DNA of 64,000 nucleotides from Escherichia coli O157:H7 (GTDB lineage Bacteria; Pseudomonadota; Gammaproteobacteria; Enterobacterales; Enterobacteriaceae): NCBI RefSeq assembly GCF_013167455.1, contig NZ_CP038328.1; one strand, given 5' to 3'. A program made the translations under genes and the position numbers. The stretch's first letter is position 1; each line of letters begins with the position of its first letter. This document shows, in pieces, positions 1-31,100 of this stretch. The notes beneath the pieces were generated by a model. That model worked only from the letters and a program-made list of their open reading frames with translations, ran no database searches and had not been told where the DNA came from.

Positions 1-333
1 TTCGGCACCGTCACCGAAGCGTTAGAACTTGATACAGCCAAGAATGGTTACATCCTCTTGGTTCAGGACGCAGAGCCAAACTTCGATGTAAATGGCAACT
101 CTCCGGGAACTCCGGATAGTTGGATAAGCTGTAGTGATCGAATGCCTGAAAAGGGCCAGAACGTGCTTATTTCAGTGAATTTCGATAGCTCTCTGGTTGA
201 ACCGCTAATATGCTCCGCACGCTATACCGGAAGCACCTTTCGGCGCGGAGATGCAACGATTAAGCCGGGTAATGGTATTGAGCAAGCAACTCACTGGATG
301 CCGCTACCGGAACCGCCGCAGGAGGTGAAGTGA
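1..333 (+). CDS. DUF551-like prophage protein, 5'-partial (reading frame is open to the window edge; track ORF 58..333 begins at TTG)
   Basis: Frame 1 has no stop from position 1; the product contains a W-I-S...SDRMPE motif typical of DUF551 prophage proteins; stop overlaps the next gene start (ATGA). Confidence 0.5.
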   Translation, partial: FGTVTEALELDTAKNGYILLVQDAEPNFDVNGNSPGTPDSWISCSDRMPEKGQNVLISVNFDSSLVEPLICSARYTGSTFRRGDATIKPGNGIEQATHWMPLPEPPQEVK

Positions 334-905
334 TGAACAACTTAATGATCGACCTTGAGACGATGGGGAAAAATAAGGATGCACCGATCGTTTCCATTGG
401 CGCGGTGTTCTTCACTCCAGAAACCGGAGACATCGGACAAGAATTCTATGCGGTTGTCAGCCTAGACAGTGCTATGAAGCAAGGAGCTACACCTGACGGC
501 GATACCATCCTGTGGTGGTTGAAACAAAGCCCTGAAGCGCGAGCTGCAATCTGTATTGATGATACTTTGTCGATCAGCGATGCTCTCTCAGAACTAAACC
601 ATTTCATTAACCGGCACGCAGACAATACGAAATATTTAAAAGTCTGGGGTAACGGGGCCACCTTCGACAACGTAATTTTACGTGGAGCTTACGAGCGAGC
701 AGGACAAATCTGCCCGTGGGCGTACTGGAATGACCACGATGTACGCACGATCGTTACGCTTGGGCGTTCCATCGGATTCGACCCCAAAATGGACATGCCT
801 TTCGATGGCGAACGGCACAACGCCCTGGCTGATGCCCGTCATCAGGCAAAATATGTTTCCGCTATCTGGCAGAAATTAATTCCTGCCACCAGCACAGAAT
901 TATGA
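330..905 (+). CDS. phage-type DnaQ-like 3'-5' exonuclease (about 190 aa)
   Basis: N-terminal MIDLETMG...PIVSIGAV is an Exo I motif of DEDD exonucleases; this size and context are common in lambdoid prophage early regions. Confidence 0.6.
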   Translation: MMNNLMIDLETMGKNKDAPIVSIGAVFFTPETGDIGQEFYAVVSLDSAMKQGATPDGDTILWWLKQSPEARAAICIDDTLSISDALSELNHFINRHADNTKYLKVWGNGATFDNVILRGAYERAGQICPWAYWNDHDVRTIVTLGRSIGFDPKMDMPFDGERHNALADARHQAKYVSAIWQKLIPATSTEL

Positions 906-914
906 TTTTCCCGG

Positions 915-1223
915 GTGCAGCCGGTTTTGATGGAGAAAATTATGAACACCTTGTTTTTACTGATGGCTGAATTCAATACCCCAAACATTGAACTCTCAGC
1001 AGTTAGCCAAAAGTACTTTGGTATGAGTCCAGCCACGGCAGAAGCAAAAGCAAACGCTTGTAAGTTGCCCGTTCCAACATATCGCATCGGCACATCACAA
1101 AAAGCAAAACGTTGCATCAATATTCAGGATCTTGCGGAATACATAGACAAAAGGCGAGAAGAAGGACGTATCGAGTGGGAACAGGTCAGAACAGTCAAAC
1201 AGAAGGGCAAAGAAAATCACTAA
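915..1223 (+). CDS. PrtN/excisionase-like small DNA-binding protein (true start may be an internal Met, MEKIMNTL or MNTLF)
   Basis: Product MNTLFLLMAEF...LPVPTYRIG resembles PrtN-family pyocin activator/excisionase-like proteins; followed by a strong hairpin. Confidence 0.45.
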   Translation: MQPVLMEKIMNTLFLLMAEFNTPNIELSAVSQKYFGMSPATAEAKANACKLPVPTYRIGTSQKAKRCINIQDLAEYIDKRREEGRIEWEQVRTVKQKGKENH

Positions 1224-1258
1224 AGAAAAAACCCGCCTGAAGGCGGGTTTTCAAAAAG
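1224..1258. terminator. intrinsic terminator hairpin (aacccgcctgaaggcgggtttt), potentially bidirectional
   Basis: Perfect GC-rich inverted repeat with flanking A/T tracts, between convergent gene sets. Confidence 0.55.
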
Positions 1259-1270
1259 CACCAGCTATGA

Positions 1271-1444
1271 TCATGCTGCTTTGAGACGACGAAGCTTACC
1301 CTGCTGCTCTTTACCAGAGACAGTAGCGTGAGTGAACGCATTAGGAGCAGCCTTCATCAGAACTTCAACAGCAGCACCCATACCTACGAATGCTTTCATT
1401 GTGTCGAACTTAACCTGTGGCTTGGTTGCTTTTTGATCTTCCAT
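1271..1444 (-). CDS. small hypothetical protein (about 57 aa), not in the ORF track
   Basis: ATG preceded by GGAG at 7 nt spacing; translation MEDQKATKPQVKFDTMKAFVGMGAAVEVLMKAAPNAFTHATVSGKEQQGKLRRLKAA; ends just upstream of the hairpin at 1224..1258. Confidence 0.3.
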   Translation of the reverse strand: MEDQKATKPQVKFDTMKAFVGMGAAVEVLMKAAPNAFTHATVSGKEQQGKLRRLKAA

Positions 1445-1483
1445 AGAAAACTCCAGAAGTTATACCGAAACAATTCCTGTTGT

Positions 1484-1903
1484 TTACTCATCATCAATAG
1501 ATGATACGCAATATTTATTTTTAAATTTAAGGTTCTTTGGCGTAACTTCATCAGAGATATCAAAACCGTCCAGAATTCTATTGAATGTAGCTTCTGGCAT
1601 ATCATCATGAACAGAAATCTCACCCGATCGCTGCTTTCTAACCATGTTATCCACTCGCCAAATTATAGCTTCAGCGTAAACAACATAACTTGGATGCTTG
1701 ATAAAGCGATGATCACCAGAATTCAAGACGCAAGACGGATCGTGGGGGACACCATCCTTGATACTAGAAATATTAACAACTAAAACACAATAACAATCGT
1801 TAACGGGGTAATAAACAGGATCATTACAAATCACATGAAGATGATTGCATGGTCCAGTTGGGGCAAGCACAGTTCCTTTCCTGTATGGCTGATAATCCGT
1901 CAT
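1484..1903 (-). CDS. hypothetical protein (139 aa), candidate toxin/effector partner of the upstream Panacea-like gene
   Basis: Start ATG overlaps the stop of the upstream gene (ATGA at 1900..1903); no recognisable family motif and no predicted TM segment. Confidence 0.5.
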   Translation of the reverse strand: MTDYQPYRKGTVLAPTGPCNHLHVICNDPVYYPVNDCYCVLVVNISSIKDGVPHDPSCVLNSGDHRFIKHPSYVVYAEAIIWRVDNMVRKQRSGEISVHDDMPEATFNRILDGFDISDEVTPKNLKFKNKYCVSSIDDE

Positions 1904-2472
1904 GATAATTGCAAAGAAAATTCCTTAAGTTTCTGAGATTCTTCCATTTTGCCAATTATGCGATTAGCCTCATCCTCGCTTTTACCCTCACTGATCAGCA
2001 TTTCTTTCAGGTCTATAGGCTTACGAGAATTGCCAGGATCGTGCCACTCTGGACAAACGCTTTCTAAATGCGTCATATTTGCGAGATCAAATCGGTTCAT
2101 ATGCCCATACCGAGAATAGATTTCATCTAAAATCCGGATATCTGCACGACTCAATTCATCAAAGACCTCGTCTGCATCCATTTCCCTCGGATCTGAACGC
2201 AACGATACATTATGCCCGTTCGTCTCTATCAAGTTGTACCAGTAGTCACCAATGCCTTCAGCCTTACCGCGAATCAAGTTCAGCGTATTCGACATGACTG
2301 GTCCAAATTTCATAGAGTAAAGGCTATCTTCGCCGATCATCCTGCCATGCTTCAAAATCGACTGGCGGTTAGACAGATAGAGCAGCTTCATCAATTTCAG
2401 ATATGCCATGCGCCCACCTCTCTTAAGAAGTAGGTATGCAGCCATTTGAGCTACTTTTTCTTCGCAAAACAT
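1900..2472 (-). CDS. Panacea (DUF4065; SocA/GepA-like) domain protein, candidate antitoxin
   Basis: N-terminal pattern YLKLMKLLYLSNR...SLYSMKFGPV matches the LKLQKLLYxA...GPV hallmark of Panacea/GepA phage-associated proteins (from memory, not searched); GAGG SD upstream. Confidence 0.5.
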   Translation of the reverse strand: MFCEEKVAQMAAYLLLKRGGRMAYLKLMKLLYLSNRQSILKHGRMIGEDSLYSMKFGPVMSNTLNLIRGKAEGIGDYWYNLIETNGHNVSLRSDPREMDADEVFDELSRADIRILDEIYSRYGHMNRFDLANMTHLESVCPEWHDPGNSRKPIDLKEMLISEGKSEDEANRIIGKMEESQKLKEFSLQLS

Positions 2473-3119
2473 ATAAGAAACCTCAAAGATAGTGAACTTT
2501 ATAATTATTCTCGATACTTCATGGGTTGCTTCATCACCAACATGAGCTTCTTATGGTGTGCCCACTTGGGCCTAAGCAACCAGTTACCTCGTTTGTCAAG
2601 TTTATAGCTGGCTTTAACCATGGTCAATTGAAGTGATGAGCAAATGATGCTTTCTAAGAATAACAGGTTCCCAATAGGCTCCCACAAAGTGCATAACTAG
2701 TTGTTTTTCAAAAACGGTACATCCTATCGAGCATTGGTGCAACGCTAAACCGACCACTCCAGTGAACGTCAGTTTTTTCAGGCATTGCGCTGGTTTGGTT
2801 GATTTTTTGCATTTCAGAATTACCGTGCATTTTCAAATGTAGAGATTATTTTATCGATATATCATGTGGTTATGTTATTCAGCATCACTGTTCAGGAGGC
2901 TCAATAACGGGGTACTATACCATAACAACAGGAAGCGCCTGTCTCATTGCAAAAGAAAATTGAGATCCTCTCAAGGCATGAAGCTCTCACGAAGTGAATA
3001 TCTAATCTTATTAGATGTTAGCGTTGTGAAAAGCAATGATAAACAATACAGATTCGACGATAAATAAAAATCACACATTAAACTCCGGTGATATCTCTCC
3101 CTGCTAATAGCACTGATAG

Positions 3120-3156
3120 AGAAAAAAAGAACCCAATAAACATTGGGTTCTTTTAT
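3120..3156 (-). terminator. intrinsic terminator for the 318-aa gene (gaacccaat-N-attgggttc followed by a T-run on the minus strand)
   Basis: Inverted repeat plus poly-A on the plus strand immediately downstream of the minus-strand stop at 3192. Confidence 0.5.
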
Positions 3157-3191
3157 GTAATACCTTTCATACCATCGAAGAACTTCACATA

Positions 3192-4148
3192 TTATTTCTC
3201 CGATTTAACCCCGAATAAATCATAAATTAATTTAGAAGTGCCTGTATATATTTTAATCTTTTCCTTTGAGTTTGGGTCAAACGACTTAGCAAAGTCAATT
3301 AATTTCGGTGCAGCATCTCGCATTTTGCTTAAAATATCAGGGGCGAGCGTTCCTTCATTCACCAGATGTGACATCTTATCCAGATAGCCATCAAAATTCA
3401 TTTCTCCCCCATCTGCCAGACGCTTCATCTCTCCCAGGTACTTCTTCATATCACGTTGAGATAATTCTTCAAACTGAGCTTTCAGGTAGTTATCATTATA
3501 TTCATTAATATTCACTCTTCCTGCAAAATCTGAGTAGACACTAGAATATGAAAGGGAAATTAACAGCGAAGCAAATAATTTTAAGCTGTTGTCATCATGT
3601 TCCTGGCAGGCATTAACAAACGTTAAGAAACCAGAACCTATTGCTTGCAAATGTATATTCGCTAAAGGTTCATTATCTTTAGATTCCTCATAAAATAGCT
3701 GAACCGTGGAGGGAAGACCATTCTTGGTTTCTACATCAAAAGTACATCGTTCTATGAGTGTCGCATCTTTATTATCCTCGGGATTACATATACTATTAAT
3801 CGCGAAATGAAAAATAGCCCTGTCAACAACTGATGCAATAAATTCACGATCGTTTAATTCCTCATCAGTACAATCTCCAATATACTCATTGACACACATT
3901 TTGAGATCGTTTATTTGCTTAATTAACGTCACATTTTTTTCACGTGCAGTCCATAAATTATGAGTGATTCTTTGAATAAATAAATCTATTTTTGCAATAA
4001 TTATATCCCGATGACGCATCGTTGAATAATCAATAGATTTACCATATATACTATTTACTTTACCTTTGATTGCATCTTCATTATCGAATTGATTTGAATT
4101 GAGTGTTTTATTAAAGTATCCTGTTGCACCGGGTATTATCTTTAACAT
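3192..4148 (-). CDS. hypothetical protein, 318 aa, AT-rich; possibly the intact form of the yjbL+yjbM locus
   Basis: Long uninterrupted ORF with its own terminator and an AT-rich divergent promoter region shared with zur; no family recognised. Confidence 0.6.
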
Positions 4149-4466
4149 GATTCATCTACCTTTTTTGTCGTACCGTGTCCTCCTTATAAGTGTTTTTGGA
4201 ACCGGTAACTATCAAAAATCGCTCATAATTTTCTGAAATTCGGGTATACGATTAGCCACGGTTAAATAAATAGCGAGTTAACTTGAAGCAATTTATTTAA
4301 AAATGAATTATTAATTATTATCGTGTTGATAATGGTACTGCCAGGCAACACAACATCTTACCTACAAAACAGAAAAGCAACATTACGGCAACAATAAGGG
4401 TTCTCGGTGTTTTTCCTGGAACATGGTAAAGTAAGGACATTCTTAACCCCCACTTTGAGGTGCCCG

Positions 4467-4982
4467 ATGGAAAAGACCACAACGCAGGAGTTATTAGCGC
4501 AGGCTGACAAAATCTGCGCGCAGCGTAATGTGCGCCTGACCCCACAGCGCCTGGAAGTGTTGCGCCTGATGAGTCTGCAGGATGGCGCTATCAGCGCTTA
4601 TGATCTGCTTGATTTGCTGCGCGAAGCTGAACCGCAAGCCAAGCCGCCAACGGTTTATCGCGCGCTGGATTTTCTGCTTGAGCAAGGTTTTGTGCATAAG
4701 GTGGAATCCACCAACAGTTATGTGCTCTGCCATCTGTTCGACCAGCCCACCCATACGTCAGCTATGTTTATTTGCGATCGCTGCGGCGCGGTGAAAGAAG
4801 AATGTGCTGAAGGCGTGGAAGACATCATGCATACGCTGGCGGCAAAAATGGGGTTTGCCCTGCGGCATAATGTGATTGAAGCACATGGGCTCTGTGCGGC
4901 ATGCGTGGAAGTGGAAGCGTGTCGTCATCCTGAACAGTGCCAGCATGATCACTCTGTGCAGGTGAAAAAGAAACCGCGTTAA
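4467..4982 (+). CDS. zur: zinc uptake regulator Zur (Fur family)
   Basis: Product MEKTTTQELLAQADKICAQRNVRLTPQRLEVL... recognised as Zur; GAGG SD upstream; start is the internal Met of track ORF 4407..4982. Confidence 0.9.
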   Translation: MEKTTTQELLAQADKICAQRNVRLTPQRLEVLRLMSLQDGAISAYDLLDLLREAEPQAKPPTVYRALDFLLEQGFVHKVESTNSYVLCHLFDQPTHTSAMFICDRCGAVKEECAEGVEDIMHTLAAKMGFALRHNVIEAHGLCAACVEVEACRHPEQCQHDHSVQVKKKPR

Positions 4983-5023
4983 GAGGGCGTACATCCTTGT
5001 ACACGTCGGGCAGGAGGGATTAA

Positions 5024-5233
5024 TTACCAGCGATATTCATTGCGGGTTTCCCAATCCACGACCTCTTTTTCTGCCTGATCTTTCTGATAACCATAACGTT
5101 CCTGGATTTTACCGACCAGTTGATCACGTTTACCTTCAATGATCGTCATATCATCATCGGTCAGTTTGCCCCATTGCTCTTTCACTTTACCTTTAAACTG
5201 TTTCCAGTTACCGCCGGCTTCATCTTTATTCAT
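5024..5233 (-). CDS. yjbJ: CsbD-like stress protein YjbJ
   Basis: 69-aa product MNKDEAGGNWKQFKGKVKEQWGKLTDDD...; position between zur and dinF. Confidence 0.85.
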   Translation of the reverse strand: MNKDEAGGNWKQFKGKVKEQWGKLTDDDMTIIEGKRDQLVGKIQERYGYQKDQAEKEVVDWETRNEYRW

Positions 5234-5348
5234 AATCAAGACCTCATCGTTAGGTTGTGAATGAGAGTACGTTCACTTTTCTTCTGAACGTGAGATTAAG
5301 TGTAGTCAGCAATTTGGCTTAGGATTATTTATTCAGAATTTTTAACCG

Positions 5349-6728
5349 TCACGTTGCGGCAAACCAGGTACCGTTGCGCCAGTGACGCCGCCAGATAGCT
5401 GCCAGAGAAAGCCCGCGCAACGCCAGAAAGACGGTTAACGCCAACCACAAACCATGATTACCCAGCCACGGCAGCGTAAGGAGCGTCAGCGCAAAACCTG
5501 CGGCGGCCACCGCCATACTGTTACGCATTTCAGCAGCACGCGTTGCGCCTATAAACATGCCGTCCAGCAGATAACACCAGACGCCGACCAACGGCAAAAT
5601 CACCTGCCAGATAAGATAGCGGTCGGCCAGCTGCTGAATCTGGGTTAACGACGCCAGTAACGCAATGATGTGTTCCCCTGCCAGCAAATAAACCACCGAA
5701 AACAGTAACGCTACGATCCCCGACTGGCGGCATGCTGCCCGCCAGACATCCAGCAACTGGCTACCGTCGCGCGCACCGTATGCCTGACCGGAATGTGCTT
5801 CAACCGCGTAGGCAAAACCGTCCAGCGCATAGGCGGTAAAGGTGAGTAGCGTCATCAGAACCGCGTTAACAGCGATAATGTCACTCCCCAGTCGCGCGCC
5901 AAGTACGGTGATCGCGCCGAAACAGAGTTGCAACAACAGCGAGCGCAGCATGATATCGCGGTTAAGTGCCAGCAAGCGACGGAAGTTTCCTCGCCAGGAA
6001 GTTTTCAGCATTTCGCCGGAGATTCCGCGTAGTTTGAGGATTTTACGCACCATTAGCAGACCAATCAGCAATGTTGCATATTCCGCAATAACCGTCGCCA
6101 GCGCCGCGCCCCGCACGTTCATATGCAGTCCCATCACCAGCCAGACATCCAGCACAATGTTGAGGATATTGCCGACCACTAACAAAATTACTGGCGCACG
6201 GGCATATTGCACGCCGAGTAACCAACCAAGTAATACCAGATTCGCCAGCGACGCCGGTGCGCTTAACCAGCGGATTTCAAGAAAGCGCCGCGCCTGTTCC
6301 AGGACTGCTTCACTACCGCCAACAATATGCAGCGCCAGATCGATAATCGGCGTACGCAGCAGCGCAATTAACGCCCCAGCCCCCAACGCCAACAGCAAAG
6401 GTTGCACCAGCGCACGGGCTAATGCCTGAGGATTTTTGGCACCATAAGCCTGCGCAGTCAGCCCGGTGGTGCTCATGCGTAAAAACAGCAACAGCATAAA
6501 GAGAAAGCTGGTCGCCGTTGCACCAACCGCCACGCCGCCCAAATAAACCGGACTATCAAGATGACCAATAACCGCCGTATCGACCAGTCCCAGCAACGGA
6601 ACAGTGATATTGGAGAAAATCATGGGTAAGGCGAGATGCCAAAGTGCTTTATCAGATGAAGTGAGGAATGCCATGCAGACAAGCCTGATGAAGAGAGATG
6701 AAAAACAAACCGCGACGCCAAGCGGCAT
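5349..6728 (-). CDS. dinF: MATE-family efflux protein DinF (SOS-induced)
   Basis: 459-aa polytopic membrane protein immediately downstream of lexA on the same strand. Confidence 0.9.
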   Translation of the reverse strand: MPLGVAVCFSSLFIRLVCMAFLTSSDKALWHLALPMIFSNITVPLLGLVDTAVIGHLDSPVYLGGVAVGATATSFLFMLLLFLRMSTTGLTAQAYGAKNPQALARALVQPLLLALGAGALIALLRTPIIDLALHIVGGSEAVLEQARRFLEIRWLSAPASLANLVLLGWLLGVQYARAPVILLVVGNILNIVLDVWLVMGLHMNVRGAALATVIAEYATLLIGLLMVRKILKLRGISGEMLKTSWRGNFRRLLALNRDIMLRSLLLQLCFGAITVLGARLGSDIIAVNAVLMTLLTFTAYALDGFAYAVEAHSGQAYGARDGSQLLDVWRAACRQSGIVALLFSVVYLLAGEHIIALLASLTQIQQLADRYLIWQVILPLVGVWCYLLDGMFIGATRAAEMRNSMAVAAAGFALTLLTLPWLGNHGLWLALTVFLALRGLSLAAIWRRHWRNGTWFAAT

Positions 6729-6746
6729 CGCGGTCTCAGAGATATG

Positions 6747-7355
6747 TTACAGCCAGTCGCCGTTGCGAATAACGCCAACCGCCAGCCCTTCAATGGTGAA
6801 GCTCTGCTGACGAAGGTCAACGACAATTGGTTTAAACTCGCTATTTTCTGGCAACAGTTCGACTTTATTGCCCTGTTTTTTCAGGCGCTTAACGGTAACT
6901 TCGTCATCAATACGTGCGACAACGACCTGACCGTTACGTACATCCTGAGTTTTATGCACTGCCAGCAAGTCGCCATCCATAATGCCGATATCTTTCATCG
7001 ACATCCCGCTGACGCGCAGCAGGAAATCAGCATTCGGCTTGAACAAGGAAGGATCGACCTGATAATGACCTTCAATATGCTGTTGCGCCAGAAGCGGTTC
7101 ACCGGCAGCCACACGACCTACCAGTGGCAACCCTTCTTCCTCTTCCTGCAACAGACGAATCCCGCGTGATGCGCCGGAAACAATTTCAATTACGCCTTTG
7201 CGTGCCAGCGCCTTCAGATGTTCTTCAGCCGCGTTTGGGGAACGGAACCCCAAACGCTGCGCGATTTCCGCACGCGTCGGCGGCATACCTGTCTGGCTGA
7301 TGTGATCACGGATGAGATCAAACACCTCTTGTTGCCTGGCCGTTAACGCTTTCAT
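6747..7355 (-). CDS. lexA: LexA repressor
   Basis: 202-aa product [54 protein letters not shown]... Confidence 0.97.
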
Positions 7356-7363
7356 TCCGCCCC

Positions 7364-7400
7364 CTGGGTGTATATACAGTTATGCTGTGAGTATATACAG
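7364..7400 (-). promoter_or_regulatory. two LexA SOS boxes in the lexA promoter (CTGTATATACTCACAG and CTGTATATACACCCAG on the minus strand)
   Basis: CTGT-N8-ACAG palindromes directly upstream of the lexA start. Confidence 0.85.
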
Positions 7401-7464
7401 CAAAAGGCGATTTTGGAACCATAAACTGCACAATAAACCAGAGATTTATCGAATTCTGGAAGGG

Positions 7465-7833
7465 TTATCCAAAATGCGACCATAACAGGATGCACCAGGT
7501 AATCACGGCGACGATAATCGCAATCAGCACCGCGGCGGATCCCATATCTTTAGCGCGTCCGGAAAGCTCATGGTATTCAGAGCCAATTCGGTCAACCACT
7601 GCTTCGATGGCGCTATTGAGGATTTCCACAATCATCACCAGCATCACGGAGCTGATAAGCAGCACGCGGGTAATCGCGTCCACATCCAGCCAGCAGGCGA
7701 TGACCACCGCCAACAATACCGCTACGCCTTCCTGACGGAATGCCGCTTCGTTGATCCATGCAGCGCGTAAACCTTTCCAGGAATAGCCAGCAGCTTTGAT
7801 TATTCGGGTGAATCCAGTGGTATTATTGGCCAT
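7465..7833 (-). CDS. dgkA: diacylglycerol kinase
   Basis: 122-aa membrane protein MANNTTGFTRIIKAAGYSWKGLRAAWINEAAFRQEG... Confidence 0.9.
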   Translation of the reverse strand: MANNTTGFTRIIKAAGYSWKGLRAAWINEAAFRQEGVAVLLAVVIACWLDVDAITRVLLISSVMLVMIVEILNSAIEAVVDRIGSEYHELSGRAKDMGSAAVLIAIIVAVITWCILLWSHFG

Positions 7834-8003
7834 TGAAAGAACCTTTTTACATTATGAGCGTCAATATCAGTGTACCGTTAAATCCGATGATTCGGGTTTG
7901 CGTAACGCCGCGCGAAACATGAGCGGATACCACAGAATTTCCCATGACTTTCTGCTATCCTTGCCGCGCATTTGCATTATTAACCAGAGGCTTTACATCG
8001 TTT

Positions 8004-28472: not shown

Positions 28473-28869
28473 AACAATTTCCCTTCATTGAATGAATGGA
28501 GATTTACCCAAAAACATTTCGGGCGGGATCGAGTATACACAACTAAAGCATGCGAATTACGGCGCGGGGAATTAGAGATGGGGTTTTAGGATAATTGGAA
28601 TGAATATCAAATATAAGCTACAACCTATATATAAATAACATTAAAAATCATAGTGTTAAAATAAAAGTAAAAGTAATTAATCTGAGTATTTTCCGAAATC
28701 AATCACGATTAAAAATCTATTTTAGGATTAACCTCACGGTATGATTTCCGTTAAATCACAGACAAGGGGATTTATCTGATAAAACAATGCCGACTTATAG
28801 TCGGCATTGTTTTTAAGGTTATTTAATTAATCGTGCTATGCATTAATTGCCGAATACGATGTACATATC

Positions 28870-30859: not shown

Positions 30860-31100
30860 CTGCGCTAGCGCAGGCCAGAAGAGGCGCGTTGCCCAAGTAA
30901 CGGTGTTGGAGGAGCCAGTCCTGTGATAACACCTGAGGGGGTGCATCGCCGAGGTGATTGAACGGCTGGCCACGTTCATCATCGGCTACAGGGGCTGAAT
31001 CCCCTGGGTTGTCACCAGAAGCGTTCGCAGTCGGGCGTTTCGCAAGTGGTGGAGCACTTCTGGGTGAAAATAGTAGCGAAGTATCGCTCTGCGCCCACCC
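30860..31100 (+). promoter_or_regulatory. lysine riboswitch (L-box) in the lysC 5' leader
   Basis: Long structured leader (...agaggcgcgttgcccaagtaacggtgttggaggagccagtcctgtgataacacctgaggggg...) upstream of lysC, recognised as the E. coli lysC leader; the overlapping minus-strand track ORF is non-coding. Confidence 0.7.

Follow-up and report, generated by a model that had tools for sequence, protein, structure and literature searches.

An early-left gene block without an integrase in Escherichia coli O157:H7: the probable attR-proximal end of a dusA-inserted lambdoid prophage

A block of phage-type genes that closes with an excisionase-like gene and has no integrase beside it raises the question of what it once belonged to, or still belongs to. 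Such a block lies at the left edge of the 64,000-nucleotide stretch of Escherichia coli O157:H7 DNA analysed here (assembly GCF_013167455.1, contig NZ_CP038328.1), which we call the window. A preliminary description saw in it a prophage early region ending at a strong terminator, and offered two origins: a decayed cryptic prophage, or an element whose integration module lies to the left of the window. Based on our comparisons, we propose that positions 1–2734 are very probably the right (attR-proximal) end of a lambdoid prophage of the mEp460/Lys8385Vzw type inserted in dusA (Table 1). The comparative evidence favours the second of the two origins, and nothing visible supports decay. The dusA-specific integrase/RdfN system to which this end would belong is already described (PMC4482086, PMC8409611), for phage 1720a-02 experimentally (PMC6328086).

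Table 1. Features at the left end of the window, with the evidence for each.
Feature	Position	Strand	Evidence
DUF551-domain early-left gene, 3' part	1–333	+	Pfam PF04448 (E = 4.2e-22); phrog_60 (E = 3.3e-32)
DEDDh 3'-5' exonuclease, 190 aa, Rv2179c-like	333–905	+	PF16473 (E = 1.4e-75); phrog_255 "exonuclease" (E = 1.3e-93)
PrtN-domain gene, rdfN-type	942–1223	+	PF11112 (E = 5.1e-23); phrog_1300 "excisionase" (E = 8.4e-40)
Putative bidirectional intrinsic-terminator hairpin	1227–1252		terminator scan and folding
57-aa phage ORF	1271–1444	-	phrog_2741 (E = 1.1e-34, full length); CDS in mEp460 and Lys8385Vzw
Putative toxin PanT, 139 aa	1484–1903	-	predicted MazF/Kid/CcdB-like fold
Panacea-domain antitoxin PanA, 190 aa, first gene of bicistron	1900–2472	-	SocA_Panacea PF13274 (E = 3.7e-19)
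Weak sigma-70-like promoter match upstream of panA (TTGACC-17-TAAACT)	2599–2627	-	consensus scan, 9/12 matches
Two tandem AGGYTCCCA repeats, 11 bp apart	2665–2684	+	43–62 bp from core; attR phage arm
Orphaned host dusA 5' end	2708–2830	-	translation against K-12 DusA
attR crossover core TCGAGCAT	2727–2734		four-way att alignment and empty-site comparison
DUF2713 gene, 318 aa, chromosomal flank	3192–4148	-	100% identical in O157:H7 genomes with empty dusA
zur	4467–4982		ORF listing

Early-left genes and the place of the integrase

The earlier reading of the left edge as prophage early-left DNA was borne out, since near-identical DNA with the same gene order is found in sequenced lambdoid phages; near-identity and gene order together place the locus with the lambdoid temperate siphoviruses of the mEp460/Lys8385Vzw type. 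A megablast of positions 1–1300 against phage records gave 98.5% identity to Lys8385Vzw (MT225100) and 97.8% to mEp460 (NC_019716). Direct comparison with Lys8385Vzw extends the match over positions 1–2833 at 98.45%, and mEp460 is 97.9% identical over 1–1454. Lys8385Vzw is a Stx1-converting phage induced from an O103:H11 strain, reported as an inducible siphovirus that lysogenises K-12 strains (PMC6986202). The right end of the lambdoid Stx2d phage 1720a-02 (Phi-stx2dact, KF030445), which has the DUF551 (annotated EaA), exonuclease and PrtN genes in common with the window, is 98.0% identical over 1–1192, where its homology ends. The E. coli genome KH_005 is 99.3% identical over 1–2900.

The ORF listing and Pfam confirmed the three plus-strand genes named in the preliminary description (DUF551-like, exonuclease, PrtN/excisionase-like). 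NCBIfam gave no usable name for any of the eight ORFs. The start of the DUF551 gene lies at least 234 bp beyond the left edge, judged by phage comparison, its homologues in Lys8385Vzw and mEp460 being 567–753 bp long. The exonuclease, an early-left accessory gene, shows DLE (residue 7) and HNALAD (residue 162) as its DEDDh motifs. The tight packing described for these genes holds for the DUF551/exonuclease junction (TGATG, 1 nt overlap) but not for the exonuclease and PrtN genes, which are 36 nt apart, or 9 nt if the latter starts at GTG 915; its likeliest start is ATG 942 behind GGAG, with ATG 930 as another alternative. Going by homologues and gene order, the three genes would close the leftward early operon, with the PrtN gene last. 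The PrtN-family protein is identical to that of the inducible phage Lys8385Vzw. Durand and colleagues found in 2021 that the PrtN-family protein RdfN is a recombination directionality factor (RDF), necessary for excision and sufficient with Int (PMC8409611); by analogy, the product of 942–1223 would be an RdfN.

Between the convergent rdfN gene and 57-aa ORF stands a hairpin, which is kept in KH_005. Its stem has 10–11 bp with six G-C pairs (11 pairs in the minus-strand scan), and its fold energy is -16.2 kcal/mol on the plus strand (z = -3.9) and -19.0 kcal/mol on the minus strand (z = -3.3). The hairpin of the preliminary description is thus real, but the terminator call was made on the minus strand only, where a T6CTTT tail follows the 57-aa ORF; the plus-strand tail is just TTTT. 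From these sequence features we take it for a bidirectional terminator, one that would be stronger for the opposite-strand cargo, with uncertain efficiency on the plus strand given the TTTT tail. The element itself does not stop there: phage homology runs on to about 2833, and the element ends at 2726/2734.

The ORF listing of positions 1–6000 contains no integrase. An excisionase gene had been expected to be followed by an integrase and an att site, a rule from which this phage type departs, its order being rdfN, cargo, attP, int. In the free-phage records of both Lys8385Vzw and mEp460, the DUF551, exonuclease and PrtN genes are followed by the 57-aa ORF and the cargo (both on the opposite strand), attP, int (1,098 bp in each), dinI and the tail fibre gene. 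With attP placed between them, the PrtN gene and int come to stand at opposite ends of the prophage on integration; the lack of int in the window is what normal integration leaves behind and is no sign of decay. The phage records show the free form, attP then int, whereas the window shows the integrated form with attR. This phage type shares with phage lambda a tyrosine integrase, a small DNA-binding RDF made together with the early-left genes, and arm repeats flanking a short core. In lambda, however, xis and int adjoin, attP lies beyond int and both genes stay at one prophage end, whereas here attP separates the RDF gene from int; and the RDF belongs with PrtN rather than with the family of lambda Xis. 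The window accordingly has no lambda-type int-xis-attP cassette, with no int within 6 kb of the excisionase-like gene.

What the rest of such a prophage looks like can be seen in KH_005, in which a complete prophage of about 45 kb lies between dusA and zur. Its order is pspG, full-length dusA, int (divergent), dinI, tails, heads, terminase, lysis, Q, replication, cro/S24-type repressor, early-left genes, PrtN gene, cargo, truncated dusA, DUF2713 and zur. There int (L004 12193–13290) diverges from a dusA (11067–12104) whose chimeric product begins MHDNPEIQKTNQTSVMPEKTGAYWSSRFSIAPMLD; this stretch is phage-supplied and in frame, and agrees with the native N-terminus at 25 of 35 residues. The integrases of the window's relatives are 98–99% identical to that of 1720a-02.

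The junction in dusA and the chromosomal flank

Among the targets that the preliminary description had suggested checking, dusA gave the answer: the attR core TCGAGCAT lies inside the 5' end of this gene. A tRNA target is rejected, the window's only tRNA being a tRNA-Glu in an rrn operon at 60.2 kb. We aligned attR (window), attB (K-12), attP (two phages) and attL (KH_005), and this four-way alignment shows a clean reciprocal exchange of arms at TCGAGCAT, 100 bp into dusA. Sequence is phage-specific up to 2726 and chromosomal from 2727. Comparison with related strains, likewise suggested earlier, places the switch from phage to chromosome at the same step, 2726/2727, in PA20 and K-12: PA20, an O157:H7 genome with intact dusA, matches positions 2727–9400 with 0 mismatches in 6,674 bp (100.000%), the match beginning exactly at TCGAGCAT, and K-12 homology likewise begins at 2727. 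The core agrees with the published dusA attB TCCAGTCGAGCATGGGAGC (PMC6328086). An att site is thus present after the PrtN gene, where it had been thought absent, only 1.5 kb further right.

The host gene has been cut accordingly. Codons 1–35 of dusA (2830 to 2726, minus strand) are identical to those of K-12 DusA and are followed by five phage codons and a stop, so that the orphaned end reads MHGNSEMQKINQTSAMPEKTDVHWSGRFSVAPMLD and then RMYRF. PGAP labels its equivalent in KH_005 [quoted passage not shown]. In the phage arm, the two AGGYTCCCA repeats of Table 1 are the only exact matches to this motif in the 64-kb window; the phage attP has five copies within 243 bp around the core, a cluster with a Poisson probability of about 2e-8. 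By their position, these repeats are candidate arm-type sites for the integrase or RdfN.

This arrangement agrees with what is known of dusA-specific elements. In more than 200 bacteria, Escherichia prominent among them, Farrugia and colleagues (2015) described integrases whose target in dusA is a conserved site in the gene's 5' end; the elements bring a replacement for this end and leave the original one as a remnant at the far junction, and a prtN homologue is found in 64% of dusA islands (PMC4482086). Such elements have no xis beside int (PMC8409611). In these elements (PMC4482086, PMC8409611), as here, insertion is at the dusA 5' end, the remnant is at the far junction and the PrtN gene is near attR, with int at the opposite end by the rebuilt dusA. 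The window has both hallmarks that it can show, the native 5' remnant at the distal junction and a PrtN-family gene away from int, 1.5 kb from attR, whose RDF activity we assign by analogy. For 1720a-02, integration 100 bp into dusA at attB TCCAGTCGAGCATGGGAGC and regeneration of attP on induction were shown experimentally; it uses the same attB and core as the window's prophage, and has int at attL together with a phage-encoded dusA 5' end (PMC6328086). Of 5,426 complete E. coli genomes, 662 have an attR-type dusA junction and 741 an attL-type one (about 12–14%); the arrangement is common.

Beyond the junction lies ordinary chromosome. The 318-aa DUF2713 gene, which the preliminary description had counted as cargo, is chromosomal: it stands beside an unoccupied dusA in O157:H7 PA20 and, in split form, in K-12, and the empty-site comparison rules out the cargo reading. 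In PA20, intact dusA directly adjoins the DUF2713 gene and zur. The gene is the intact form of K-12 yjbL plus yjbM, the K-12 copy being frameshifted and split. Since this flank shows zero divergence from the empty-site O157:H7 chromosome of PA20, the insertion appears to be recent. Taking this together with the intact ORFs and the intact attR, we conclude that it is a recent and probably complete insertion; the lengths of the visible ORFs equal those in the phages, with no visible decay, and the source strain probably carries the whole prophage, int and attL being located beyond the window's left edge. The combination of an O157:H7-type flank with this prophage end was found in 0 complete RefSeq E. 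coli genomes, the best match being 96.8% over positions 1–4400.

We suggest a plausible scheme for how this prophage would leave the chromosome. In the integrated state, int would occupy the left end at a distance of about 45 kb and diverge from a dusA in which the phage supplies the first 35 codons; a complete left end would carry AGGTTCCC repeats in the spacer between dusA and int. An SOS signal would cause self-cleavage of an S24-type repressor and so open the early-left operon, of which RdfN (942–1223) would be the last product before the hairpin. RdfN may then bend or assemble the attR arm and direct the integrase, which would be made at the prophage's other end from a promoter of its own; a Pint homologue is constitutive in IMEVchUSA3 (PMC8409611). 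Recombination of attL with attR within TCGAGCAT would release the phage and restore native dusA. The scheme differs from IMEVchUSA3 in the control of rdfN, which there is expressed from an AcaCD-dependent promoter of the helper plasmid, whereas in the window it closes a lambdoid early-left operon, presumably under SOS/CI control. The two proteins also differ in length (93 aa in the window versus 76 aa in IMEVchUSA3).

The cargo slot between rdfN and attP

The ORF listing contains everything that the preliminary description had reported on the opposite strand: the 57-aa ORF, the coupled pair and the 318-aa ORF, followed by zur. Because the homology with Lys8385Vzw spans the 57-aa ORF and the coupled pair (to 2833), these are phage-borne cargo. 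The slot between rdfN and attP varies from phage to phage. In the window and in Lys8385Vzw, which has an identical RdfN, it is filled by the 57-aa ORF together with the PanA/PanT pair; mEp460, with which the window shares the attP arm, has the 57-aa ORF with a 177-aa gene in place of the toxin-antitoxin pair; and 1720a-02 differs in having a single 182-aa gene. Both mEp460 and Lys8385Vzw keep the 57-aa ORF along with rdfN and the terminator; 1720a-02 lacks this ORF.

The coupled pair is a putative toxin-antitoxin module, also found in prophages besides Lys8385Vzw. A Panacea (DUF4065) antitoxin stands in a two-gene operon with a small putative toxin, the organisation of type II PanA-PanT systems, and the junction of panA with the 139-aa ORF is an ATGA overlap. 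The 139-aa protein had no significant match in Pfam, NCBIfam, PADLOC or PDB sequence searches and, by Pfam PemK_toxin, is not a sequence member of the MazF/PemK family. The only informative family evidence comes from structure prediction, in which the protein has a MazF/Kid/CcdB SH3-like barrel fold. Residues H20, H22, C25, C57 and H64 are invariant in its family. Pairs of PanA with MazF-like toxins that lack domain matches have been validated elsewhere: Kurata and colleagues (2022; PMC8832971) described systems that likewise have the Panacea antitoxin upstream and an overlapping small toxin, and in their pairs from P. moraviensis and B. ruminantium the toxin also has no sequence domain match and a MazF/PemK-like predicted structure. 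Those pairs were validated, whereas the putative pair here is known from its sequence and predicted fold. By analogy, it may act as addiction or defence cargo.

The exact PanA protein occurs in 10,997 index blocks of a public assembly collection. We read 33 contigs, and in all ten of the loci displayed zur adjoins the PanA locus, and lambdoid immunity and replication modules lie leftward within the 10-kb flank, with a mosaic early-left region. The ten contigs with identical PanA protein are 97–99.8% identical to the window, none of them 100%.

How the cargo is transcribed can be suggested only from positions, and those of pL, the panA promoter and the dusA promoter are putative. Promoter scans gave matches no more frequent than in shuffled sequences, including the weak match upstream of panA (Table 1). 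The stranded dusA promoter would lie upstream of 2830 on the minus strand and point at the cargo, and the scan predicted no terminator between it and panA; read-through into the cargo slot is possible. We raise two further ideas, both of which we hold to be doubtful. The stranded dusA promoter might drive the operon of PanA, the MazF-fold toxin and the 57-aa ORF specifically in lysogens; if this were true, capture of the dusA promoter would confine addiction or defence to lysogeny. The other idea concerns the 139-aa toxin: with its invariant His and Cys residues and no family at the sequence level, it might represent a branch of the MazF fold whose mechanism is distinct and possibly depends on a metal.

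Other possible origins and what the locus means

The main competitor of a prophage with its left end beyond the window is a decayed cryptic remnant, immobile, in which only the early-left tail, the cargo and attR survive and int has been deleted with most of the phage. The left 40–50 kb, with int, attL and the phage-supplied dusA 5' end, do lie outside the window, and losses at such loci occur: one relative, L009, lacks the equivalent of positions 2743–4399, beside this prophage end, some relatives carry IS insertions, and the unequal numbers of attL and attR junctions (741 versus 662) imply that some genomes have just one detectable junction. What can be seen here, however, is undamaged. All six visible genes have their full length and share 98–99% identity with their counterparts in inducible phages, the attR core is intact, as are the arm repeats, and a flank 100.000% identical to the empty-site O157:H7 chromosome implies recent acquisition. 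KH_005, the sole close relative read from end to end, has the complete 45-kb prophage, and the other sampled loci (10/10) continue leftward through the repressor and replication modules up to the limit of the 10-kb flank. We therefore consider a remnant unlikely.

Another possibility is a non-phage integrative or mobilizable element of the kind of IMEVchUSA3 or the Acinetobacter GEI, specific for dusA and bearing phage-like early genes. About half of dusA-specific elements are not prophages (PMC4482086), and RdfN is common to both kinds (PMC8409611). Yet the whole visible part is 98% identical to tailed lambdoid phages that form plaques or are inducible, the lambdoid immunity and replication modules stand leftward of PanA in all ten sampled loci with the identical protein, and KH_005, at 99.3% over positions 1–2900, has a full lambdoid prophage; such an origin is very improbable. 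Least credible of all, to the point of being negligible, is that the three plus-strand genes are a conserved core operon of the chromosome, the outcome that the preliminary description had itself named as its refutation. We found no support for it, and the empty-site comparison refutes it: PA20 and K-12 have dusA beside the DUF2713 gene and nothing of positions 1–2726. At least 80% of positions 1–2900 is present in only 128 of the 5,426 complete genomes, and the same DNA occurs in isolated phage genomes.

The prophage end at dusA is thus our preferred reading, and its main value is correct annotation, with little significance beyond that. For delimiting dusA-integrating prophages, the boundary to use is the TCGAGCAT core in the truncated dusA rather than the terminator that follows the excisionase-like gene. 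Of additional note, the close relatives of this prophage end include the Stx1- and Stx2-converting phages Lys8385Vzw and 1720a-02, and for this reason a dusA-borne prophage in a chromosome of the O157:H7 lineage merits a check for stx.

Host flank and prophage end

The chromosomal flank (window 2727-9400) matches E. coli O157:H7 PA20, in which dusA is unoccupied, over 6,674 bp with 0 mismatches, which places the host in the O157:H7 lineage. The combination of this flank with the prophage end of the window was found in no complete RefSeq E. coli genome. Among the close relatives of the prophage end are Stx-converting phages.

Beside the prophage, the window and O157:H7 carry a single intact DUF2713 gene of 318 aa; compared with it, the K-12 copy is frameshifted, its halves being annotated as yjbL (84 aa) and yjbM (235 aa). 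In one genome whose prophage end is 99.8% identical (GCA_900448265.1), the dusA 5' remnant and the entire DUF2713 gene are gone, and in the counterpart of window 2743-4399 (9530-10000 of locus L009) the prophage arm adjoins zur directly.

Features and their coordinates
Feature	Location	Strand	Remark
DUF2713 gene	window 3192-4148	-	intact
yjbL/yjbM	K-12 locus L005 2322-3307		frameshifted
PanT-like putative toxin gene	window 1484-1903	-	
Native dusA promoter region	window 2837-3190, into 2472	-	
Hairpin	window 3125-3154	-	
Tandem cores	Lys8385Vzw (L002) 8727-8742		
rrn operon with tRNA-Glu and StyR-44	window 56930-61940	-	ordinary chromosomal RNA feature
Lysine riboswitch	window 30871-31067	+	ordinary chromosomal RNA feature
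naRNA4/REP-type repeats (3)	window 19213, 28884, 51976	-	ordinary chromosomal RNA features
STnc430	window 28669-28818	+	ordinary chromosomal RNA feature

Attachment core and dusA promoter region

The record of phage Lys8385Vzw contains two tandem copies of the crossover core TCGAGCAT. The doubling is probably no true part of attP but an artefact that arose when the prophage ends were used to close the phage sequence.

The native dusA promoter region has the same orientation as the PanA, toxin and 57-aa cargo genes, and no terminator was predicted between it and them. The sole hairpin there lies upstream, following the DUF2713 gene.

The PanT-like toxin family

Members of the PanT-like family, which matched no Pfam family, occur in Enterobacterales, Vibrio and Shewanella and share invariant H20, H22, C25, D54, C57 and H64. 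The fold of the putative toxin is predicted to be MazF-like.
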